38,820 nucleotides of DNA from Pseudomonas phage LPPA33, in the sequence record OR188720.1. One strand, given 5' to 3'. This document shows, piece by piece, positions 8,492 through 30,561 of the stretch (its first letter is position 1; the number at the start of each line of letters is the position of its first letter). The notes beneath the pieces are model-generated. The model was given only the letters and a program-made list of their open reading frames with translations, ran no database searches and was not told the DNA's origin. Both the position numbers and the translations under genes were made by a program.

Positions 8492-8572
8492 CGCCGTTCA
8501 TGCCCGGCAGGGACGCCGGATGTGGGCTCGCCCGCGTGGTGCTACAGTTGCGCCATTTAGGGAGGGGTTGAA

Positions 8573-9094
8573 ATGTACTCTAGGTCGCGCGGATTTTCCC
8601 TTATCGAGTTGATGGTTGTGGTCGTACTCTTGGCCGTTTTGGCATTCATGGCCGTTCCGAGCTTCAAGGCTATGCAGGAGGGGAACAACCATCTAGCCGG
8701 CAAAGAAGTTTTTCTCCAGCACCTGGAATTTGCCAGGTCCTATGCGCTGTCAAAAAAGACAACTGTCGAAGTCTGTGCAGAAAGTGGAGGGTGGACTGAC
8801 GGATATATCGTGCGCACAGATTCTGGTAAGACTGTTTTGCTTAAGGAAAATAAGTATAAGAACATCCATCCAGTTGGAGCGTGGAAAGGCTCTATGGAGT
8901 ATGGGTGTGTGCGATTCGTATCCAATGGGAGCGCACCCGCGGTGCCTGCCCCGACGGGGGAGTACTACGACTCTGGTTTCTTCGGTGGTGAAGAGCTGGA
9001 CAAGGCTGCTTGGCGGGTGACGTTCAAGCCGTCTGGCTGGAACTGCACTGAGAAAGATCCTAAAGACCCTAAGTGCGCCAAGAAACCAACCTGA
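8573..9094 (+). CDS. Type IV pilin-like protein (prepilin-type N-terminal methylation domain; FimT/GspH-like minor pilin or pseudopilin). A moron inside the tail operon.
   Basis: 173 aa. It has a short leader (MYSRSR), then the G|FSLIELMVVVVLLAVLAFMAVP class III signal with Glu+5 and a hydrophobic helix, and C-terminal Cys residues. The local GC is lower than in the flanking tail genes. SD is GGGAGGGG. Confidence 0.65.
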   Translation: MYSRSRGFSLIELMVVVVLLAVLAFMAVPSFKAMQEGNNHLAGKEVFLQHLEFARSYALSKKTTVEVCAESGGWTDGYIVRTDSGKTVLLKENKYKNIHPVGAWKGSMEYGCVRFVSNGSAPAVPAPTGEYYDSGFFGGEELDKAAWRVTFKPSGWNCTEKDPKDPKCAKKPT

Positions 9095-9165
9095 TCGCCG
9101 GCTTGTGTTCTTGGTAATGGCCTGTTGATGCTAAAGTGTGAAGCGGTTCCAATGGAGAGTCGCTT

Positions 9166-9693
9166 ATGACACGGATTTTTCCCGTTCTCGCCTTGCTTCT
9201 TGCGGTCAGTTCTGCCAGTGGGGCGACGGTCTTTAAGTGCGTCGGCCCTGACGGAAAAGTCACTTTTACCCAGCAGAATTGCCCTGACAACCAATCGCTG
9301 AACGATGTGGTTTCTGCCACCAACCAGCGCCCAAGCGGGTCAGGTGCCTCGGCTGTCATGGCCAAGCCCAAGCAGCCATCAGGTCGTACCTATAGAGGTA
9401 GTCACCAGGTCGGCAGCGGAGTGATCGTCGTCGGTGGTTCGTCGCCAAGCCCTACGTGTTCCACAGGACTATCTGAGCGTGACCTTCGCAAGGCCAAGGT
9501 CCAGGGCAAGGTCGTTCCTGGAATGTCCAGGGAGGACGTGGAAAGCATCTACGGGAAGGTGAACCGCAACGGCAGTACCGCCGGCGCGGGTGCTGTCACC
9601 TACTGGAATGACAAGTATGTTGACCAGACGACCGTTTCGTTTGATCGTAACGGATGCGTCCAGGGTTCATACCAATCGGGCCACAAGAACTAG
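9166..9693 (+). CDS. Secreted protein with a signal peptide, a DUF4124-like N-terminal domain and a BamE/SmpA-like C-terminal motif. Second gene of the moron cassette.
   Basis: 175 aa. The signal peptide is MTRIFPVLALLLAVSSASGA, followed by a VFKCVGPDGKVTFTQQNCP motif and a later ...VPGMSREDVESIYGKV motif. It is lower in GC than its surroundings and has SD GGAGAG. Confidence 0.45.
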   Translation: MTRIFPVLALLLAVSSASGATVFKCVGPDGKVTFTQQNCPDNQSLNDVVSATNQRPSGSGASAVMAKPKQPSGRTYRGSHQVGSGVIVVGGSSPSPTCSTGLSERDLRKAKVQGKVVPGMSREDVESIYGKVNRNGSTAGAGAVTYWNDKYVDQTTVSFDRNGCVQGSYQSGHKN

Positions 9694-9716
9694 CCGATAT
9701 AACGCTTTTTAAACAG

Positions 9717-9744
9717 CCCCGCCATTCGGCGGGGTTTGTGCTTT
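9717..9744 (+). terminator. Rho-independent terminator closing the pilin/DUF4124 cassette.
   Basis: CCCCGCC-attc-GGCGGGG hairpin followed by TTTGTGCTTT. Confidence 0.55.
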
Positions 9745-9757
9745 CTGGAGGGTTGAA

Positions 9758-10060
9758 ATGTCCAGCTTTACTGCAAGTAGAGTTGTAGATATTGATGGCG
9801 TTGAGTTGACCGTGCGGGAACTTAGCGTTGCGGATGTTCGAAAGCTAATGCAAGAGGTCAGCGATCAAGACCTCGTCAACAATGTCCTCTTCGAAGATAT
9901 CAGGCTATCCGATCTGTGCCTGATGACGTCGGTTACGAAGAGCCAAATTAACGATCTCCGGCCTAGCCAACTCGCCAAGTTGCGGGATGCATGTAAAGAG
10001 GTGAACCCGCATTTTTTCGGAATGCTGGGCCGTCTCTCGAAACTCCCCGACAAGCCATAA
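9758..10060 (+). CDS. Tail assembly chaperone, lambda gpG-like.
   Basis: 100 aa. DGVELTVRELSVADVRKLMQE resembles lambda G (NGVTVTLSELSALQRIEHLALM). It is directly upstream of the tape measure gene, and a slippery site lies near its 3' end. Confidence 0.6.
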   Translation: MSSFTASRVVDIDGVELTVRELSVADVRKLMQEVSDQDLVNNVLFEDIRLSDLCLMTSVTKSQINDLRPSQLAKLRDACKEVNPHFFGMLGRLSKLPDKP

Positions 10061-10162: not shown

Positions 10163-12646
10163 ATGGCTGACGTAAAGATCCGGCTGACCGCTGACCTCGA
10201 TGATGCGCTGCGCGAGGTGTCAGGCTTCCGCAAGGAATATGCCGAACTGGTCAGGCAAGTCGCGCAACCTCTCAAGCGTTTAAACGATTTCACTGCTCTC
10301 GAAAGCACTCTCGAGGACACGCAACGCCAGGCGCGCTCGGCGCGCGAGCAGATCCGCACGCTCGGCAACGAGCTGGCATCGACGATCAGGCCAAGCCGCG
10401 AATTGCAGCAGGCTTACCGGGACTCCATTTCGGACTTGCGAAGCCTGGAGCGGGCAGAGACCGTCCAGGTAGCCAAGCTCGGAGCGATGCGCCGGGAGTT
10501 GAAGCAGGCCGGGCTGGATACGAGGAGCCTGACATCCGAACGGCAGCGGCTCCAGCGGGAGCTGGATCGAAACCTCCAGGCGGGCCGGAATGATGCGGCC
10601 ACCACCAGCCTCCGGCAACAGGCTGCAGCGATCAAGCAGAGCGCGATAGAGCAGCGCCGCTTCAACTTGGAGCAAGCGCGTAGCACCCTGGGAGTCGCCA
10701 GGGTGCGCGAACTGCAGGCTGCTATCGGGCAGTTGAACCAGCAATATCGCTTGCTTCGGTCGAGCGGAACGCTGTCCACAAGGGAACTTGCCGTTGCGCA
10801 GCGGGCGCTCAAAAAGCAGATCGCGGAGACCAAGAGCGAACTCAACTCGCTTGGCGCCGGCTCGCGGCTGTCGAGCATCGGCTCTCTCCGCGGGAGCGGT
10901 CCAGCGCTGGCAGTTGCGGGTCTCGCAGCCGCAGTAGGCGCTGCAACGGCGAAGCTAGCGAACGGCGCCGACACTGTTGGCCGGCTCGATTCCCGGCTTC
11001 GCCTGGCGACCCGCTCACAGGAAGAGTTCAACACCGCGCAGATCGAACTCGACCGTATCGCGGATGATGTTCAGGGCGACGTCGGCGACCTCATCGGCCT
11101 TTATTCGCGGTTGCAGCGCCCGCTTCGGGATGCGGGCATGGATCAGCGCGCCGCCCTTGAAACCGTAGAGGCGGTATCCCTTGGCCTGAAAATCGGTGGA
11201 GCCTCTGCCGAGGAGTCGGCGTCGGTCATTACCCAGTTCTCCCAGGCTATTGCCAGTGGCGTCCTTCGGGGCGAAGAGTTCAATACCGTTCTGGAGTCCT
11301 CGGATCGAATTGCTGGCGCTCTGGCGGACTCCTTCGGGGTGACTGTTGGACGGCTTCGTGAGATGGCTGCCGCCGGTGAGCTGACGTCGGAGCAGATCGT
11401 TATCGCGCTGCGGAAGGAACTTCCGAAGCTCCGCGAGGAGATGGCTTCGTTTGCGCCGGAGATCGGCGCGGGGCTGAACCGGATCTTTTCCGAAACCCAG
11501 AAATATTGGGGGCGCAGAGCGAAGGAAACAGGCATCGTCGACTGGGTTGCGAACCAGTTGAACGATGTTGCCAAGGGGATCAACACGGCGAATACGCTGG
11601 TGAAAAAGGGCGAGGGCAGCCTCACGGCCACCCTCGCCGCCGAGAAGGCGCGTCAAGAGCAGATCGTGAAGCGCCAGAACGATGCCCTGAAGCGGGCTCG
11701 GGATCAGAACGTCGCTGATCTCCAGTCTGAGGTTGTTCGGACCAAGGCCCTACTTGAGCAGTCCACCAAGAACCTCAACGACGCGCTTTCGCGCCAGGCA
11801 GATGTCCGCAAGGAGTTTGCCGACCTGGTGAAGGGCATCCAGGCGACGCCCACCTCCGGAACGCAGACCTTCGGTGATGCCACTGCGGCCCAGGCCTCGG
11901 CTCGCAACGCGCTGACCGCCGGCAACAACCAAAAGGCGATCGAGGAGGCGCGCCGCGCGCTGCAGATCCTTCAGCAACTGAAGGACGCTGGCGCGAACAG
12001 CTATGGCTTCGAAGGCGTGGCCAAAGAGGTGGAGCGCATCGCCAACAAGGCCGCAGAGGTCGAGGCTGGTAATGCCAAGGCTGCGGATGACGTCAACCGC
12101 CTGAACCTGGCCGACCTCGAGGAGCGCATCAAGGCTGTGCAAAACGTCGAGGTGTCGTTCGGAATGGACTTCGAAAGCGCGGAGACCTTGAAGCAACAGG
12201 TCGCCGACATCGCCGCCGGACTGGCTGAGCAGCTCGTGATACCTATCACGCTGGTTCCGCCTCCGGAGATGGGCTTGCCTGGCGTGCCCAGCATCACCCC
12301 CAAGATACCCGGGTTTGCCACTGGTACGCAGAGCGCTCCCCCTGGTATGGCGTGGGTTGGGGAGCGTGGGCCGGAGTTGATGATGATGCGCGGAGGAGAG
12401 CGCATCTTCAACGCGGTGCAGTCGCTGCAGATGTCGCAGAGGTATCAACGAACTCTCCCCGAGATACCCGAGATTCCGACTGCGGCGCTTCAGCAGGCGA
12501 ATCCGCCGGCAGCCATGCAAAACCTGGGATCGCTGACCCTCAACCTGGGTGGAGACGATGCCGGTTTCACCGTTTTCGGGACACACGACACGCTCCGAGA
12601 TATACGCAAGGCCGCTTCGAAGTTCGGGCGGACGCGCCCAAAATGA
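10163..12646 (+). CDS. Tail tape measure protein.
   Basis: 827 aa, highly alpha-helical, Ala/Gln/Arg/Glu-rich and coiled-coil throughout. It is preceded by the G/GT chaperone. Confidence 0.85.
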   Translation: MADVKIRLTADLDDALREVSGFRKEYAELVRQVAQPLKRLNDFTALESTLEDTQRQARSAREQIRTLGNELASTIRPSRELQQAYRDSISDLRSLERAETVQVAKLGAMRRELKQAGLDTRSLTSERQRLQRELDRNLQAGRNDAATTSLRQQAAAIKQSAIEQRRFNLEQARSTLGVARVRELQAAIGQLNQQYRLLRSSGTLSTRELAVAQRALKKQIAETKSELNSLGAGSRLSSIGSLRGSGPALAVAGLAAAVGAATAKLANGADTVGRLDSRLRLATRSQEEFNTAQIELDRIADDVQGDVGDLIGLYSRLQRPLRDAGMDQRAALETVEAVSLGLKIGGASAEESASVITQFSQAIASGVLRGEEFNTVLESSDRIAGALADSFGVTVGRLREMAAAGELTSEQIVIALRKELPKLREEMASFAPEIGAGLNRIFSETQKYWGRRAKETGIVDWVANQLNDVAKGINTANTLVKKGEGSLTATLAAEKARQEQIVKRQNDALKRARDQNVADLQSEVVRTKALLEQSTKNLNDALSRQADVRKEFADLVKGIQATPTSGTQTFGDATAAQASARNALTAGNNQKAIEEARRALQILQQLKDAGANSYGFEGVAKEVERIANKAAEVEAGNAKAADDVNRLNLADLEERIKAVQNVEVSFGMDFESAETLKQQVADIAAGLAEQLVIPITLVPPPEMGLPGVPSITPKIPGFATGTQSAPPGMAWVGERGPELMMMRGGERIFNAVQSLQMSQRYQRTLPEIPEIPTAALQQANPPAAMQNLGSLTLNLGGDDAGFTVFGTHDTLRDIRKAASKFGRTRPK

Positions 12647-15875: not shown

Positions 15876-16298
15876 ATGGCTCTATCAGATGAGCGCCGCG
15901 GCATCGGCGCAAGGAACGAAGCGATCCGCCGCGCCGGCGGCCAGCGGGTCGAAGCGGAGCGACGCGGTGACCAGGGTTTGACCGCCGCGCTCAACCGGCT
16001 GATCGAGCCGGAACGCCAGGCGCGGTCGCTGCGGAAAATCGATCCGCGCGGCGCCCTGGATGCAAAGCGCGGGCGGGCGGACTACAACCCCGCCGGAAAG
16101 CAGCTCGGTGGGGGTGGCGGTATTGCGAGCCCCCTGATCGAGGAAGATGCCGACCAGCGCGAATACTACGAACTGCAGACAATCCCCACCAGCGATGGCC
16201 TGGCCTGGCTCCGGTATCGCAGCGTGAAGAAGATCGTCATGACCGACGCGTTAGGCGCAGAAGTGGTGATGGAGTACGCGAACGATGTTTCCCAATAG
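15876..16298 (+). CDS. Hypothetical tail-module protein.
   Basis: 140 aa. SD is GGAGGTGG. Confidence 0.35.
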   Translation: MALSDERRGIGARNEAIRRAGGQRVEAERRGDQGLTAALNRLIEPERQARSLRKIDPRGALDAKRGRADYNPAGKQLGGGGGIASPLIEEDADQREYYELQTIPTSDGLAWLRYRSVKKIVMTDALGAEVVMEYANDVSQ

Positions 16299-17778
16299 TC
16301 CGCTCGATGAAGCTCCGCAGGTATGGGGGTGGCCATGGCACGGCCTAATACGACAGCCAATCAACGCCGTTGATTCGACCCTGACGTTACCAAGCGGGCG
16401 CACGATGACGATGCCGCCTGTCAGGCTCGCAAATAATACGGCCCTTTGGGACGTAGGCATGCCTATCCCTGAAGTGGAAACCGATGATCCAGATGAGCAG
16501 TGGCTAAACCGAGCGATTTTGCGTGGAACGGATTTGTCCGAAGCTTATGGCGGGGTTTCCTTACAGCCTGCATTTATTCGTGGTTACACGATTCGATACG
16601 GCGTAAGCGTTCAATACAATTTTTTTCTCGAAACAATAGCTGCTAGCTGTTTGTTTCGGGATGGATTTACAGGGTTTTCTGGGACGGTCAGTAGTAATGC
16701 AATATCTCTGTCAGACCTTGGATTGCCCGTCAAGCCGGACGGTATCTCTTTCGAAGTTCTGGATGTAAATAACGACGGAACACGCCGTCTCTACCTGGCT
16801 AGATATCAAGAGACCGCTGGGAGTGGATTCATTGGTGTTGGTGGGATGCTTGAGTTGCGTGTGAGTGCGAGCGGCGCGAACAGCTTTCAGGCGGAACTGT
16901 CCGTGGTTGCGCCTTGGGCGCAGATACAATTCGAGACTATCGACAGCAGCCGAACAGATGTTGACCCGAATACCCATACCCGCTTTTGGCGTGGGACGCC
17001 GGAGGACCCAGACGGCCCGTTCAATGAAAGCAGTGGAGAGCCGCCACCCCCGCCATACCCGGGGCATCCGTGGGCGCCTCACGTGTATAGAGTTCTAATC
17101 GGAGAGTTTTCAGCATCACTTCGCGCAAGGTCAACTGCTGGAGCGTGGTATGGATTGTCTGGCTCCCTTGAACTAATAACGCTCGAAGTTTCTATCGTGT
17201 CAACGATGTCGCGCTCGGCAGGTATCTCTGGCGACCACATCTCATTTAGCATGACCGAAGATATTTCGTTTTCCTACACCTTGAGCTCTTCTTCCGGCGG
17301 GTCCTCAGAGTCGCTGTACAACTCGCTTTCTACGAGCGGAGTTCTTAATGGGCCTGGTTCTATCCAATGGGCTGACAGCATCACTGGTCAAAGTGTCGCG
17401 AGTGGCTCGGAGTCTATTAGCTTGGGTGATATATACCTGCTTACTCCTGATGTTGGCGACAGTTATGCGGAAGGATTGGACTGGTCGTCACCAATTGAGC
17501 TGTTCCCGGGGCGTCCGTCGACGATAAGCGACCAATCTGCGTGGCCGGTGCTTAGATACTCAAACAAGCTTTTAGGCCTTTTTTTCTATCGTGGTAGAGA
17601 CCGTCGGTTTGCTGGAGTGGCTCTCACCCCGCATGGCCCCCACGGATCGCGTCAGGTTGATGTGGATGTTAGTGGCTTTTCCCCGTTAGAGATGGAGGCG
17701 TGGGGCAAGGGCTCCTACAACCCTCTCACCGGCGACGCTATACGCAACGACCCGAACGCCTTCTATTCCTACGTTTGA
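16285..17778 (+). CDS. Low-GC tail-tip protein, a candidate receptor-binding or host-range protein.
   Basis: 497 aa with about 47-50% GC, well below the roughly 63% of its neighbours. A Ser-rich stretch is SSSSGGSSESLYNSLSTSG. The start is uncertain because the first ATG has no clear SD. Confidence 0.4.
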   Translation: MFPNSPLDEAPQVWGWPWHGLIRQPINAVDSTLTLPSGRTMTMPPVRLANNTALWDVGMPIPEVETDDPDEQWLNRAILRGTDLSEAYGGVSLQPAFIRGYTIRYGVSVQYNFFLETIAASCLFRDGFTGFSGTVSSNAISLSDLGLPVKPDGISFEVLDVNNDGTRRLYLARYQETAGSGFIGVGGMLELRVSASGANSFQAELSVVAPWAQIQFETIDSSRTDVDPNTHTRFWRGTPEDPDGPFNESSGEPPPPPYPGHPWAPHVYRVLIGEFSASLRARSTAGAWYGLSGSLELITLEVSIVSTMSRSAGISGDHISFSMTEDISFSYTLSSSSGGSSESLYNSLSTSGVLNGPGSIQWADSITGQSVASGSESISLGDIYLLTPDVGDSYAEGLDWSSPIELFPGRPSTISDQSAWPVLRYSNKLLGLFFYRGRDRRFAGVALTPHGPHGSRQVDVDVSGFSPLEMEAWGKGSYNPLTGDAIRNDPNAFYSYV

Positions 17779-20813: not shown

Positions 20814-21067
20814 TTGAATGCAAGCGCTTGCATACAAATGCGAACCCCGCCGAGGCGGGGTTCAAGTTGGGCTTCTAGCCCATTGCGATAAGACCGTTTC
20901 GATAGGTGCCCATGCAATCACGAATCTGAGTTGGCGCAGAGGAGGTGCGCCTTATGTCTTGAGAGGATGGGATTGCCCCGCTCCTATCCGAACAGGAGAT
21001 TTGGCGTGAACGACTATTTCGGTCATTTGCACTGGATTTGCCGATCTGCCCAGAAACGTCACGATAG

Positions 21068-22108
21068 TTAGAGGTCATGTGAATAGCCCGTATGGTTGTG
21101 AACCAGTTTTGGCTCATTGAGCATTGCGAATTTCTCGCCTCTCTTGAGCACACCAATGTGGGTTCTTCCTCCAACGGTAGCTACACCGTTGGCGAACCGC
21201 TGCATCCCTGACTGCAAGTTCACCAGCAATTCAGCTAGCTCAACTGCATACTGGGTTGGGAGATTTCCAAAGTCAATATCCGCAACGCAATCCCACCAAG
21301 GGAGAATCATTTCTCTTTGAGGTGCCTCGAACGTGAATCCTTCTGGGACATTGACACCTGCGGCCCGCAGTTGATCAACCACCGATTGAGCCGCTTGTCG
21401 GGTGCGCGATTCGATCTCACGATTTATCACTCCACTGACAGATTCGACAATTCTGCCATCTACGCCAACAAGAAGCCTCTCTACAAAATCAGACTGCCCG
21501 CCGAAACACGCGCCTGAACGTGTCTGCCAAAGAAACTGCTCCTCTGCTGTCAAATCTTTGACGAATATCTTGTAAACTTTACTCGTTTCGTCGTCTGCTC
21601 CATAGCCACCGACAATAAATTGAACGTCTGGCATGTAGGGCTTCTGCTCTTCTGGGCAGTTCTGGTAATTGACCTGCTTTTCCCACTCCTGACGAACAGC
21701 CCCCATAAAGTCCTTTGCGACCCGCTCTACCGTTCGGTAACGACGGTTCTCAGATGCACATAGGCGGCTGAACTTCTTAGCGAAACCTGCAATCGTCACG
21801 CCATTTAACGTCGCCATGCCAGCGGTGACGGCCGCGACAGAGGTGTCCTCATCTTCGTAGAGGAGGAACATCTTTTGCGCTCCAGAGAACACGTTGGTGA
21901 CGAACGGCTGCAAGTACGCAGTGGACACAACCTTCTCTCCTGAAGCATCAATCAACTCTTGACCATTCGCGTCTCTGGCAAAAGTTGCGCCATTTCGAAA
22001 CGGCAGAATTGCCTGTTCGACGATGCTTGATAGGCTGTCACACCCCAAGACGATTGAGTCATAGGTTGCGATTGCAATGTTAATTGTCAAGGGTGCTCTC
22101 CATAGCAT
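21068..22108 (-). CDS. Proteasome-beta/HslV-like Ntn-hydrolase fold protein. A lower-GC single-gene moron between the tail fibres and int.
   Basis: The N-terminus is MLWRAPL|TINIAIATYDSIVLGCDSLSS, which matches the proteasome-beta/HslV signature: Thr1 after a short propeptide, Asp17, then a ...QKMFLLYEDEDTSVAAVTAGMATL segment that resembles the K33 region. It also has FIVGGYGADDE and ...TRSGACFGG..., and a C-terminal TVGGRTHIGVLKRGEKF that resembles the SGG...V..I..K.G strand. GC is about 48% against 63% in the neighbours. The track ORF extends to TTG 22231, and ATG 22108 coincides with the drop in GC. No SD is present. Confidence 0.45.
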   Translation of the reverse strand: MLWRAPLTINIAIATYDSIVLGCDSLSSIVEQAILPFRNGATFARDANGQELIDASGEKVVSTAYLQPFVTNVFSGAQKMFLLYEDEDTSVAAVTAGMATLNGVTIAGFAKKFSRLCASENRRYRTVERVAKDFMGAVRQEWEKQVNYQNCPEEQKPYMPDVQFIVGGYGADDETSKVYKIFVKDLTAEEQFLWQTRSGACFGGQSDFVERLLVGVDGRIVESVSGVINREIESRTRQAAQSVVDQLRAAGVNVPEGFTFEAPQREMILPWWDCVADIDFGNLPTQYAVELAELLVNLQSGMQRFANGVATVGGRTHIGVLKRGEKFAMLNEPKLVHNHTGYSHDL

Positions 22109-22394
22109 GGGCGCGAGAGTATGGCGCCTAGGCGTTTTGCCATCAATCTTTGGTGATGATCGGCTGGGTCTCGACAACGGGCGGGACGTGTACCGCGAAG
22201 CCGTTGCGGATTCTGGCCGCTTCCACTCCAAAACGCTACCGTAAGCATTTGATTCTGTTGGCTTGCGGATGTTCTCAAGCGAATTGCTTTTTGATGGTCT
22301 TTTTTGTCATAACTAATTGATTTGTATAGGAAAAAGCAAATTCTATCGTGCGTCCCAGGCTTTGATGCCGTAGAGAACGTAAGTCATTGTTTTT

Positions 22395-22430
22395 CCTTTG
22401 GGGTTTTGGCTCCTCCAAAACCCCTCCAAT
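22395..22430. promoter_or_regulatory. Perfect 10-bp inverted repeat (GGGGTTTTGG-ctcct-CCAAAACCCC) just downstream of the int stop, within an AT-rich tract. Candidate sib-like retroregulator or attP core.
   Basis: Seen at 22401-22425. The 22232-22400 tract is AT-rich and contains TTGATT-type repeats (possible Int arm sites). The lambda sib and attP positions relative to int are analogous. Confidence 0.3.
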
Positions 22431-22453
22431 ATTCCTCTAAAATTCCCGCCAGA

Positions 22454-23557
22454 TTATGCCACGTCGATCCATTCGGCGCCCCGACTGTCCCGGTAGAGAT
22501 CCGTCATCTTCGCGGAGCGGTGGCCGAGCAGCCGTTGCGCATCGCGCCCTTCTTCTTCATGAAGCCTGGCAGCCAGGGAACGCATCTCATGGAAGCTTGG
22601 CGGGCTGGCGCCGAAATCGAGCCCATGCTTTTTCGCCGCCCTGTCCCTCGCATCAGCGAACGCGGCGCTTATGGTGTCCAGCATAATCGGCTGCCCAGCC
22701 TTGGCGCGACTGATCGTGCGGTGATGATGGATCATGTAGCGGGAAAGAACCCTCCCTCGGCATGATTTGATCACTGAGGCCAGATCGAGGCCAAGGACAG
22801 CCAGACCAATCGACGTGCTTATACGAAGGCGCATTCCCGTCTTCGACTGAACAACCTGCAGGTATCCGTCCTGCTCGTCCTTGAACTGCATTTCTGCAAG
22901 ATCCTCCCGCCTCTGGCCGGTAATAACCGCCAGTTCCATGGCTCGTTTCAACCAGGGCTGTTTCGCCTCGGCATAGATCAGACGCCATGTCTCCAGGGTC
23001 AGGCGCTCGCGCTTGATTTTCACCCGCGCCGCCTTCGTCACCTCCACCGGGTTTTTGTCAGTCCATCCGGCCGCCATCGACTCCATGAAAACATCACGCA
23101 GAAGGGATCGCATGGCTCGGGCCATTTGTGCTTTCCCTTCCTTCGCCATCTCCGAGAAGTAGCCGGCCACATCAATGGTCCCGATATCCCGGATGTCCAT
23201 CGTTCCGAACCTGGCGCGCAGCCGTTTCAGGCGCATCCGAGTATTACGGACACTGGCCGCCGCCAGGCCGCGCTCGGCGTAGATCTTTTCGTACTCGATG
23301 AGCCAGTCGTCAAATAGCCGCGGCGGACGTGATGGCTCAGAATTGAGCCTGTCGGCGATAGTCTGCTGAAGCGCTTCCGTGTGGTTTGCTTCGATCGCTT
23401 CCCGAATCGCGCGAGCCTTGTCCTTGCCCAGGCCGAACATCCGGCCGCTTACTGGATCTCGATAGGCGTAATAGGTTACGCCTGACCGAGAATCCGTCTT
23501 CTTGTAAAGGTTTGGGGGGAGGTCTTTTGACCCCTCTTTACGCGGCCTTGGTGCCAT
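22454..23557 (-). CDS. int: Tyrosine integrase, lambda Int family.
   Basis: 367 aa. The C-terminus (HEMRSLAARLHEEEG...LLGHRSAKMTDLYRDSRGAEWIDVA) parallels lambda Int (HELRSLSARLY...GHKSDTMASQYRDDRGREWDKIEIK). Confidence 0.9.
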   Translation of the reverse strand: MAPRPRKEGSKDLPPNLYKKTDSRSGVTYYAYRDPVSGRMFGLGKDKARAIREAIEANHTEALQQTIADRLNSEPSRPPRLFDDWLIEYEKIYAERGLAAASVRNTRMRLKRLRARFGTMDIRDIGTIDVAGYFSEMAKEGKAQMARAMRSLLRDVFMESMAAGWTDKNPVEVTKAARVKIKRERLTLETWRLIYAEAKQPWLKRAMELAVITGQRREDLAEMQFKDEQDGYLQVVQSKTGMRLRISTSIGLAVLGLDLASVIKSCRGRVLSRYMIHHHRTISRAKAGQPIMLDTISAAFADARDRAAKKHGLDFGASPPSFHEMRSLAARLHEEEGRDAQRLLGHRSAKMTDLYRDSRGAEWIDVA

Positions 23558-28867: not shown

Positions 28868-29056
28868 TTAAGCAGGATTAATGATCATGCGGTCGGTGCC
28901 ATCTTCATTGAGGCCTTTCAGAATCTCGATGCTGAACAGGTCGGCGAGCTCTTCGCAGAGAACGCCGGTTTTGTAGGCTTCAGAGAACTGAGGGAAGAAC
29001 AGACCGACGGCGTTGGTGCCGCTGTTATCTACGTAGTGAACGTTCTTGCTAATCAT
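28868..29056 (-). CDS. Hypothetical small protein, first gene of the leftward early operon.
   Basis: 62 aa with SD GGAGGG at 7-nt spacing. The track ORF runs on to 29410, but the upstream part looks non-coding. It is preceded by a leader of about 300 nt that contains the GATGCCC-N10-GGGCATC hairpin. Confidence 0.4.
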   Translation of the reverse strand: MISKNVHYVDNSGTNAVGLFFPQFSEAYKTGVLCEELADLFSIEILKGLNEDGTDRMIINPA

Positions 29057-29358
29057 CGTCTTGCCCTCCAGGGCGTGTTGACTTCCTCGATGCCCCTCTT
29101 GCGAAGGGCATCTGAGAAATCGGGTCGTCTCGGTCGCTTCTCCTTGTCGGGGTTCGTTCCCACTCCTGCGTTTGCTTCTTTGGTCTATTGGCAGGTGACT
29201 TGAGCGACGTCGCGTGCAACGCATGGGCTTGCACGGCTGGACTGTCCGGCCCAGCTCAGGCTGCGTCTTTTGCCTCTCCCAGCGTCTCGCGACGTTGGCG
29301 CAGCAGAGGGTTCCCAAATTGTCGAAAGAGCGGTCGGCTCGGTGGCCTCCCTTGAACC

Positions 29359-29478
29359 AAAAAGGTACATAGGGTGAGCTGAAATTAGTAGCGAAAAGGT
29401 ACATTGTCAATACCTTGGTTGTACCTTTATGGCTCTTATAGGAATTCTGACTGTTCGGATACTGTATGTATGTACAGT
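29359..29478. promoter_or_regulatory. OL-like operator/promoter cluster: GTAC-centred half-sites and palindromes related to the OR operators.
   Basis: GGTACA at 29364-29369. AAAGGTACA (29395-29403) is inverted with TGTACCTTT (29420-29428). The palindrome CTGTATGTATGTACAG is at 29462-29477. The OR motif CTGTAC-N7-GTACAG is at 31319-31337. Confidence 0.35.
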
Positions 29479-29491
29479 TTATGAGGTGCTT

Positions 29492-29746
29492 ATGGCCAAG
29501 AAGCAGAAGCAGCAGGCGTACGAGGTCACGCCGACTGATCGCCTGGGGATGCGGGTGTCCGCGATGATCAATTCACCGAAGGCGCAGGATCTGGGGAAGG
29601 TGACGATTCACCGGCTGGACAGTGACCCGGCGGAAGCGTGGGATGCGGTGATGGAGGTGCTGGCTGAGACGGACGGTATCGACCTGGTGTTCAACGACGA
29701 CGGCACCGTGACACTGAGATGGGATAGGCAGGTACTGGAGGGGTAG
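29492..29746 (+). CDS. Hypothetical protein in the immunity region.
   Basis: 84 aa from the ATG that has SD GAGGTG. The palindromic operator-like site lies just upstream. Confidence 0.4.
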   Translation: MAKKQKQQAYEVTPTDRLGMRVSAMINSPKAQDLGKVTIHRLDSDPAEAWDAVMEVLAETDGIDLVFNDDGTVTLRWDRQVLEG

Positions 29747-29750
29747 GGCG

Positions 29751-29778
29751 GAAATGAAAAGCCCCGCAGATGCGGGGC
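29751..29778 (-). terminator. Rho-independent terminator for the brnTA-like pair. The hairpin also sits downstream of the plus-strand gene.
   Basis: GCCCCGC-agat-GCGGGGC, with a T-run on the minus strand (TTTTCATTTC). Confidence 0.55.
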
Positions 29779-29799
29779 CACTGGATAAACCTCTTTCTG

Positions 29800-30159
29800 T
29801 TACGCCCTCATTTTTTCGAGGAACTCCTTCACCGGAGCGGTGCTGGATTCGCTAACAGTTTTCTCGGACGATTCGATTTCATTCAGTCGCTGACAAATGA
29901 TTTGCTTGATCTCGGACCGAGCAAACCGATTGAGTAGGTCTCGGATCATCGGCTGATAGCCGACTCCGTGATACTCGGCAATTTTCTTGAGATCGTTTAC
30001 TAATTGCTTTTGTAGGCGAATGGAAATCAGTTGGAGGCCGAGCGCGTCATCCACCTCTTGCTTTGAGCCAGTGGAGACTTGGGCGTGCGCTTCGGTCGTC
30101 CCGAGCTCGCCGCTTTCCCACAGTTCAACGTTGCTCATAGCTTCCTCACTCTTTGTCAT
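29800..30159 (-). CDS. BrnA-like antitoxin.
   Basis: 119 aa. LQLISIRLQKQLVNDLKKIAEYHGVGYQPMIRDLLNRF matches the BrnA signature (iSiRl...Lk..A...g.pYQ.li). It overlaps the toxin stop (ATGA). GC is low, about 45%. Confidence 0.5.
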   Translation of the reverse strand: MTKSEEAMSNVELWESGELGTTEAHAQVSTGSKQEVDDALGLQLISIRLQKQLVNDLKKIAEYHGVGYQPMIRDLLNRFARSEIKQIICQRLNEIESSEKTVSESSTAPVKEFLEKMRA

Positions 30160-30449
30160 TTGATTGCAAATTTTCTGTAGATACGTGTTTCTTCAGCACT
30201 GGGTTCGTACGCTGTTTTCAGGAAAACCTTGCCATTCTCGAAGACGAAGCAGATCTTTAGGGCCCTGCCAGCGTTTGTTTCGGCTACGAACCATTTCGTT
30301 ACAGGGTCTGTCTTGTGATCCTCTCGCAGGTCGATCAGGTGTTCACCCTCGCAGTTCTCGAAGCATTGCTCGATTTCTCTGCGGCTCACGCCACCATGCT
30401 TTTCCTGAAGCTTCCTCTCGATGGCGTCCGAAATGATCAGATTTTCCAA
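30156..30449 (-). CDS. BrnT-like toxin (RelE-fold ribonuclease family).
   Basis: 97 aa. The N-terminal ...ERKLQEKHGGVSRREIEQCF resembles the BrnT KHGV.FeEa motif. It comes first in the operon, as in brnTA. It is AT-rich relative to the phage. Confidence 0.45.
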   Translation of the reverse strand: MENLIISDAIERKLQEKHGGVSRREIEQCFENCEGEHLIDLREDHKTDPVTKWFVAETNAGRALKICFVFENGKVFLKTAYEPSAEETRIYRKFAIK

Positions 30450-30561
30450 GCGCGGTTACCATTTGACTTTGTATATACAGATGATAGGCCGCTCTGGGAG
30501 GTAGATCAATCCCTCTGTATATACAGACAGCTAGGCAGAAAAATGGTTCGGCTGGGAGCAG

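Follow-up and report, generated by a model that had tools for sequence, protein, structure and literature searches.

Pseudomonas phage LPPA33 (sequence record OR188720.1) carries, on its minus strand, a gene whose product resembles the beta subunit of the proteasome, and the locus raises the question of what such an enzyme does in a phage genome and how its activity is controlled. The window discussed here is the whole stretch of 38,820 nucleotides that was analysed. PHROG scans describe it as a lambda-like temperate siphovirus, whose plus strand holds genes for terminase, tape measure and tail fibre, and whose minus strand holds those for integrase (22454-23557), excisionase and a CI-like repressor. 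DNA similarity places the phage in the P. aeruginosa LES-prophage-2 / vB_Pae_CF/BR group. The same scans confirm the location given in a preliminary description of the sequence, in that the protease gene lies between the last late/tail-fibre genes and int/xis. Genes for defence or for altering the host are commonly housed at this place in prophages.

On the minus strand, positions 20841-22232 make up a cargo cassette of two genes (a “moron”) that is self-contained and horizontally mobile; in it the protease gene follows its own promoter and is itself followed by a translationally coupled small gene and a terminator. We put at about even the chances that this mobile two-gene cassette is a conflict module, in which the small partner protein serves as substrate or pseudosubstrate regulator of a threonine protease.

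The protease gene and its small partner gene

The open reading frame (ORF) at 21068-22231 on the minus strand, pointed out in the preliminary description, is a real, conserved gene. A word-index search returned 321 homologues, an exhaustive profile search returned 1,208 cluster representatives at E<=1e-3, and the ratio of non-synonymous to synonymous substitution rates (dN/dS) between close relatives is 0.03-0.10. The low guanine-plus-cytosine (GC) content reported for the gene is also borne out, with 50.6% measured (about 48% had been stated) vs 60.8% for the window; the cassette as a whole has 52% vs 61%. The LESphi2 GenBank record names the product “proteasome subunit beta”; every other named RefSeq/GenBank/UniRef entry seen reads “hypothetical protein”.

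The codon preceding the threonine is a start codon in 39/39 loci (ATG in 20, TTG in 13, GTG in 6), and 32 of these 39 scorable loci have a Shine-Dalgarno-like motif ahead of it. In the window the Shine-Dalgarno sequence GGAGAG is read at 22096-22101 (minus strand), 5 nt before TTG 22090. The coding sequence is therefore assigned to 21068-22090 (minus strand), which encodes 340 amino acids (aa) from a TTG start; homology, fold, profile matches and dN/dS identify it as a proteasome-like N-terminal-threonine hydrolase gene. The homologues start MTINIA..., the window protein starts M-T-INIAIATYDSIVLGCDS, and the peptide encoded upstream of the threonine is without conservation among homologues. 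MLWRAPL had been taken for a propeptide in front of Thr1, to be removed by self-activation; it is better read as untranslated leader. As the threonine directly follows the initiator methionine, removal of the methionine alone should expose the nucleophile, and no autoprocessing is needed.

The preliminary description had the gene standing alone, with 250 bp of non-coding DNA (20814-21067) past its end. That stretch turns out to consist mostly of a second ORF and a terminator hairpin (20841-20864). The ORF, at 20875-21078 on the minus strand, encodes 67 aa, is recognised by its conservation, and has an ATG overlapping the protease stop by 11 nt (cATGACCTCTAA). An ORF of 61-75 aa overlapping the protease stop by 8-11 nt is present in 51/51 homologous loci examined (23 from genomes, with the window counted among them, 24 on IMG/VR viral contigs and 4 others), and in each of them its ATG precedes the end of the protease gene by 7 or 10 nt. 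Over the 171 nt past the protease stop, the partner frame (+1) is open in all 33 distinct loci, vs 5/33 for each other frame. The ratio of non-synonymous to synonymous differences per site (pN/pS) of the partner is about 0.2-0.7 with synonymous sites saturated; between the loci L006 and L007, 19/143 non-synonymous vs 35/46 synonymous sites differ. The consistently open frame, together with non-synonymous change far below synonymous change, indicates that the small ORF is coding, and by these sequence comparisons the partner is under purifying selection. Neighbour clustering over 23 loci gave no conserved neighbour of ordinary size. The partner gene is unannotated in the LESphi2 record and in 3 further NCBI assemblies inspected, and is missing from most public annotations.

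These observations bear directly on the notion of a lone, self-activating threonine protease, in which the propeptide MLWRAPL would be autocatalytically removed and the enzyme would need no partner to act on proteins of the host or of phages. Such a precursor would be permitted by the in-frame ATG present at 22108, upstream of the threonine codon, and the proteasome-like fold and catalytic residues described below agree with it. Nevertheless, the start codon before the threonine with a Shine-Dalgarno sequence in front of it, the lack of conservation of the upstream peptide, and the constant presence of the partner ORF leave this version with hardly any probability; it is the only alternative considered here that is ruled out, by start-codon and partner-ORF conservation.

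The partner proteins evolve fast, share 13-49% identity with that of the window, and contain much Ser, Arg and Pro. When all 22 partners are aligned, one glycine is the sole invariant column besides the initiator methionine. This glycine sits in [DE]-R-[ST]-G-[AS]-[IV] in most clades, and the window version is D-R-S-G-A-I. In the alignment of the 21 partners without the Stenotrophomonas/Lysobacter clade, the arginine at Gly-2 and a second glycine in the C-terminal turn are also invariant. The Gly motif is followed by a C-terminal hairpin V-x-V...G...V-x-V, to which a basic tail is added in Xanthomonadales. AlphaFold2 predicts the partner alone to be disordered, with a mean predicted local distance difference test score (pLDDT) of 59, except for a hairpin at 57-66. 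The partner has no Pfam or PHROG family, and a partner profile search gave 11 matches, all unnamed or “hypothetical”.

Downstream small genes are found as well beside the distant relatives P0224 (282 aa), P0175 (341 aa) and P0190 (338 aa); they are not recognisably homologous to the partner. We also note two unusual arrangements. In Rhodanobacter sp. FW104-R8 (L022, ~10950-11209), a frameshift near the TVGG-RTH motif produces a 424-aa protease-partner fused ORF; a natural fusion, a pseudogene and an error in sequencing are all conceivable. In L061/L062 (4001-5394), the gene for P0232, a distant relative of 280 aa, overlaps that of an acidic 89-aa protein downstream, and a PemK/MazF-type toxin gene comes next; the 89-aa protein may be a protease partner, the PemK antitoxin, or both.

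Fold, active site and relation to known proteasome homologues

The AlphaFold2 model of the protease, built on 49 family members, has a pLDDT of 84.4 and a predicted template modelling score (pTM) of 0.78. It shows the four-layer alpha-beta-beta-alpha N-terminal nucleophile (Ntn) hydrolase fold in the proteasome topology S1-S5, H1-H2, S6-S9, H3-H4, S10, with H1 at residues 100-113 and H2 at 121-139. A Foldseek search against the Protein Data Bank (PDB) returned 416 chains at E<=1e-3, and every one of the best 50 is a proteasome or Anbu chain, with a probability of 1.0. The roughly 140-aa extension proposed earlier is not seen, the extra length being mainly internal: ~35 aa are inserted in S3/S4 (residues ~28-60), in a non-helical conformation, and ~70 aa in H3/H4 (~209-278), and a 14-aa low-confidence tail follows at the C-terminus.

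Sequence searches recover the relationship at a broader level. A narrow family profile (A1) gave no proteasome match among PDB sequences, and with hhalign reached 2% probability against a single beta-subunit sequence. A broadened profile (A3), which holds 62 diverse members, matched PDB sequences of which, among the matches listed, nearly all are proteasome subunits or Anbu (best E 0.0055), and its position 2 (Thr) is aligned with residue 1 of mature beta subunits and Anbu. With the T. acidophilum beta subunit, whose sequence was entered by hand, hhalign gave A3 a 70% probability over H2-S8. The Pfam family PF00227, proposed earlier as the search to identify the protein, has no match in the window protein even at E<=10; it appears below threshold in 4/10 distant relatives, N-terminally anchored (E 0.007-0.22; 11.6-16.5 bits vs the 22.4 cutoff). 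Pfam and NCBIfam scans of the protease were likewise without a match, and the PHROGs scan yielded only a marginal match to phrog_5990, of unknown function. Family membership thus rests on the structural and profile evidence, by which the protease is a 340-aa member of the proteasome-beta/Anbu branch of Ntn hydrolases. The proteasome-beta/HslV/Anbu-like assignment made in the preliminary description is upheld to this extent, and the outcome named there as its refutation did not occur.

The motifs quoted in that description are present, and T2, D18, K73 and G91 are invariant or nearly so. Across the 62 diverse members of A3, K73 and G91 never vary, whilst T2, D18 and S19 are conserved in >=90%. 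By their position relative to the predicted strands, T2, D18, K73 and G91 match proteasome T1, D17, K33 and G47; K73 immediately precedes the S4-like strand and G91 ends the S5-like strand. In hhalign, D18 also pairs with D17 of M. tuberculosis PrcB; the probability is low, and the template sequence was again entered by hand.

The best structural match is Anbu (ancestral beta subunit; PDB 5lox, 5loy, 5nyw). The operon that encodes Anbu also contains ATP-grasp, transglutaminase-like and alpha-E genes, and the Anbu protein has a C-terminal H5 coiled-coil helix. In contrast, these operon families are not among the recurrent neighbours listed for the present loci, and the C-terminus of the window protein is the 14-residue low-confidence tail, without a helix. 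In HslV (ClpQ), Thr1 is exposed by removal of the initiator methionine and there is no propeptide. The window family shares this Met-Thr start without propeptide; it differs from HslVU in the length of the protein (340 vs ~175 aa), and no AAA+ protein is recurrent among the families listed for 146 neighbours. Membership in HslV or Anbu was rejected, as the operon partners are absent. The earlier statement that no ATPase or alpha-like gene is adjacent holds among the neighbours examined. The 20S beta subunit (MEROPS T1, PF00227), at about 200 aa, is also much shorter than the window protein, which in addition has no alpha subunit and no propeptide, and is unmatched by PF00227. The H3/H4 insertion falls at the ring-ring contact, which may keep double rings from forming (PMC8665760).

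Fuchs, Alva & Lupas (2021, Bioinformatics; PMC8665760) catalogued, by purely bioinformatic means, 22 families of orphan proteasome homologues, some of them phage-borne. One of these, PMI-5, is restricted to Proteobacteria, rare (19 sequences in nr90), and has an unstructured S3/S4 insertion and an H3/H4 insertion (PMC8665760). The window protein resembles it in having a proteasome-like fold, conserved active-site residues, the same two insertion sites, a proteobacterial distribution and few sequences. The PMI-5 representative WP_179179973.1 / KEGG OC.651801 is not among the members of the 20 clusters checked. Matched on the published description, the family fits the uncharacterised PMI homologues, and by anatomy PMI-5. 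PMC8665760 gives no phage occurrence for PMI-5, and the terms “operon” and “small protein” are absent from its text; the phage-borne cassette and the obligatory small partner exceed that description. Proteasome-fold genes travel on tailed phages in other cases too, namely the phage homologues PPH and AAH (PMC8665760) and proteins in BFVD. However, PPH is about 140 aa long and belongs to the HslV/BPH-like group I, the proteasome-like matches in BFVD are 167-289 aa long with <=14% identity to the window protein, and none of the PPH, AAH and BFVD proteins is reported with a small partner.

Connectase (MJ0548; PDB 6zw0) has an S3/S4 insertion that forms a substrate-selecting lid, and acts on one short linear motif in a specific substrate (PMC8665760). 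The window protein shares the proteasome fold and the S3/S4 insertion, and the partner in its cassette bears one conserved short motif. This likeness raises the alternative of connectase-like processing or ligation, in which a highly sequence-specific transpeptidase or processing protease would have the partner as its sole substrate, and would either cut it at the Gly motif to free a bioactive peptide or join one fragment to target proteins as a tag. Connectase is archaeal, lacks H1 and H2 and has a two-helix S3/S4 insertion, whereas the window family is bacterial, possesses H1 and H2, and has a non-helical insertion; proteasome and Anbu are far better structural matches. No conserved acceptor or target gene is found nearby, and the termini of the partner are not conserved, unlike those of a tag. 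Processing or ligation is therefore considered improbable. A Pup-like tag was also rejected, the partner C-termini being not conserved.

One further feature of the protease deserves mention. The C-terminal tail (residues ~327-340; window 21068-21110) reads L-x-H-x-H-T-G-Y-x-H-[DE]-x and is strongly conserved, with H331 and G335 invariant and H333 and Y336 conserved in >=90%, in a region that is predicted to be disordered (pLDDT<50). Only the last 3-4 protease codons overlap the partner start, so most of this conservation acts on the protein itself. The segment could be a metal-binding or docking tail.

Mobility, genomic context and possible role

By its sequence features the cassette would be classed as a moron, as it combines its own promoter and terminator, atypical GC content, patchy presence and a position between modules. 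The promoter is a sigma70-like element consisting of TTGATG (22146-22141), a 17-nt spacer and CATACT (22123-22118). This promoter-like element is kept in Pseudomonas loci with otherwise unrelated upstream DNA. It matches 8/12 consensus positions, which falls under the threshold of the promoter scan, and for this reason the scan reported none. A sigma54 promoter at a TGGCAA element was rejected on the misfit of its -12 element. Homology to LESphi2 and the vB_Pae_CF/BR phages stops at 22232, 142 nt upstream of the start, and the int module of the window is unlike that of LESphi2; this end point and the conserved element define the 5' leader and promoter region (22091-22232, minus strand). At the other end, a scan of the flank sequence revealed an intrinsic-terminator-like hairpin at 20841-20864 (minus strand), GAACCCCGCC-tc-GGCGGGGTTC followed by CATTTGTATG, with a 10-bp GC-rich stem and a T-rich tail, 11 nt past the stop of the small ORF. 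The hairpin lies between convergent transcription units and is hence probably bidirectional.

Presence of the gene is patchy among related phages. Only 15/113 phage records matching the surrounding region carry it; these 15, LES prophage 2 among them, have the same protein (about 97% identity). In MD8, TC7 and zjk6 other small minus-strand cargo genes occupy the same slot. One identical protein sequence is found on 773 contigs, and the cassette is widespread in P. aeruginosa and common in clinical isolates. The family occurs in 22/185,579 species genomes, all but one tiny contig from Gammaproteobacteria, and the named hosts are all Gammaproteobacteria, save for two very small, incomplete contigs assigned to Trinickia and Corallococcus. 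Hosts of the cassette include soil- and plant-associated Pseudomonas, Xanthomonas, Luteibacter, Rhodanobacter and Halomonadaceae. A plasmid search found no copy among 72,556 plasmids.

This distribution bears on the possibility that the protease is a lysogenic-conversion factor, which would remodel host physiology or virulence, e.g. by degrading a regulator, a surface-structure component or a stress protein. The occurrence in LES prophage 2, the wide spread in P. aeruginosa and the moron position and anatomy are compatible with this, and such a factor could be one contributor to the competitiveness in vivo with which LES prophages have been associated. However, the same cassette resides in many non-clinical hosts, which makes a niche-specific virulence role unlikely, and a literature search yielded no function or phenotype linked to the LESphi2 gene. 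A conversion factor is for these reasons regarded as quite improbable.

The genomic surroundings are varied. In a Xanthomonas campestris prophage (L057; CP156001.1, 6153-8240), the cassette is situated 56 nt downstream of a co-oriented cI-like repressor gene with HTH_3 and Peptidase_S24 domains. rexAB in lambda has the same position relative to cI, and by analogy with lambda cI-rexAB this layout suggests co-transcription with the repressor in lysogens. In Lysobacter the carrier of the cassette is an element bearing TrbL, a conjugative-transfer gene; in P. cichorii it is a phage-satellite-like element with a DUF927 primase-like gene. In Pseudomonas M47T1 the cassette adjoins a TIR protein gene. 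The 146 neighbour proteins of 26 loci include integrases, resolvases, TIR proteins (2), DRT2, PDC-S31/35/60/67 and products of restriction-modification genes. The cassette often lies within a few kb of the ends of IMG/VR prophages, and the predictions for L032 and L033 cut through the gene.

Two individual contexts are recorded here. In Luteibacter jiangsuensis (L003/L010), the cassette is flanked by a gene for a 1,018-aa metallophosphatase-nSTAND NTPase, by Peptidase_M78, and by a Multi_ubiq and ThiF pair; these surroundings are likely a defence island. In the LESphi2 record (L001 / OQ594955.1; gene 40815-41837), the cassette is 286 bp from the linear end and int is at the other end, so that the gene would be read inward from the attachment (att) junction if the record is in prophage orientation.

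An addiction module resembling toxin-antitoxin systems, with no anti-phage role, would account for part of these findings. The free protease would be toxic, the labile partner would neutralise it, and the carrier element would be stabilised. A two-gene, translationally coupled unit with a fast-evolving small partner is of this kind, the unit travels on diverse mobile elements, and a distant relative stands beside a PemK toxin gene. On the other hand, the large-then-small gene order and a partner without a DNA-binding domain are atypical for type II systems, and the absence of plasmid copies is unexpected for pure addiction. Pure addiction is unlikely in our judgement.

The reading favoured here, a protease governed by its partner within a conflict module, starts from the exposed nucleophile. 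Thr1 would be exposed by methionine aminopeptidase, so that its activity would have to be controlled in another way. The partner, as the only co-inherited candidate controller, is favoured as the gate or director of the protease. A disordered chain whose sole conserved feature is a 4-6-residue motif resembles a substrate or pseudosubstrate for an active-site cleft, and the partner may accordingly act as cognate substrate or pseudosubstrate regulator. The S3/S4 insertion of the protease, moreover, occupies the site of the connectase lid (PMC8665760). Its hairpin would dock on the enzyme, possibly by beta-augmentation, and the Gly-centred linear motif would occupy the active-site cleft, which would keep a potentially dangerous protease specific or silent in the lysogen. 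Once the partner is cleaved, displaced or no longer made, e.g. upon infection by another phage, the protease would act on its targets. Expressed from the prophage, such a conflict module could operate in superinfection exclusion, in abortive infection or as a toxin-antitoxin-like system. The genomic contexts are compatible with the abortive-infection role that the preliminary description had raised as a possibility.

Several points weigh against this reading. We infer the contact between protease and partner, and regulated proteolysis in a conflict or defence role follows from genomic context only. The neighbours, taken as raw counts, are suggestive of defence-island or mobile-element cargo, and PADLOC-DB 2.0 returned 0 families at E<=10 for the protease. 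The partner motif is not uniform, since the Stenotrophomonas/Lysobacter clade has R-I-[IV]-A-P-x-x-N-G-Q instead, and the Ser1-type distant relative P0241 is without a downstream small ORF. The equivalents of Ser129, Asp166 and Ser169 were not placed; the regions in question read ...G-x-C-[WF]-G-G-Q... and ...T-V-G-G-R-T.... Anbu, the closest structural relative, is without demonstrated protease activity and is termed a “hypothetical bacterial protease” (PMC8665760).

The last two points would equally suit a scaffold with the proteasome fold but no catalytic activity, as in alpha subunits, or a phage virion or assembly protein. The equivalents of T1, D17, K33 and G47, conserved across the 62 diverse members, speak against an inactive scaffold. 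A virion or assembly protein is disfavoured by the absence of the gene from most related phages, its presence in non-phage islands, its location on the strand opposite to the structural operon, and its different GC content. Inactivity or a structural role is accordingly very improbable.

A stronger form of the favoured reading is that the cassette represents a new anti-phage or abortive-infection system, in which a proteasome-fold threonine protease would be gated by, or specific for, a disordered mini-protein. This is put forward tentatively, with the balance of probability against it. If true, it would give the first functional role for any orphan bacterial proteasome homologue. In a more radical version, connectase-like ligation would join a fragment of the mini-protein onto targets, i.e. 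protein tagging; if true, this would be a protein-tagging system built from a proteasome homologue.

The preliminary description knew of no comparable module. For defence systems this stands: the protease has no PADLOC match, the literature search gave no publication connecting phage defence with proteasome-like, HslV or Ntn proteins, and the protease-partner cassette was found neither in a defence database nor in a paper. For the protein it does not, orphan and phage-borne homologues having been catalogued in 2021 (PMC8665760). With such homologues on record (PMC8665760; BFVD), the fold as such does not count as a new kind; the new elements appear to be the invariable pairing with a mini-protein, the complete moron anatomy and the prophage-cargo contexts. 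The functions of orphan bacterial proteasome homologues (Anbu, BPH and the 22 families of 2021) are essentially unknown. The present cassette is a candidate new conflict or defence module unrecognised by current defence databases, and it offers a tractable setting in an inducible P. aeruginosa prophage of the LES-phi2 type with an apparent dedicated substrate or regulator, so that what the protease cuts, and when, is directly testable.

Flanking DNA and other segments of the window

The 24 bp at 20814-20837, which have the end of the last plus-strand late gene directly on one side and the terminator hairpin on the other, form a near-perfect palindrome, TTGAATGCAAGCGCTTGCATACAA (arms TTGAATGCAAGCG/CGCTTGCATACAA). 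This could serve as a further terminator stem or as a site for protein binding.

On the other side of the cassette, the 220-bp stretch 22232-22453, which extends from the cassette boundary to the int stop, is absent from LESphi2, whose integrase also differs. Within it, a perfect 10-bp inverted repeat (GGGGTTTTGG/CCAAAACCCC) occupies 22400-22424, close behind int. The 220-bp stretch is probably the attP region or the int terminator. Rfam and tRNA scans of the whole window gave no match; accordingly, no known RNA gene accounts for the flanks, and a tRNA att site is absent.

Other lower-GC patches are present in the window at 8501-10000, 16501-17500 and 29001-30500 (0.51-0.56 vs about 0.61). The patch at 16501-17500 falls within a 497-aa ORF (16285-17778; phrog_15966, unknown function). 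These patches may be further mosaic or cargo segments.

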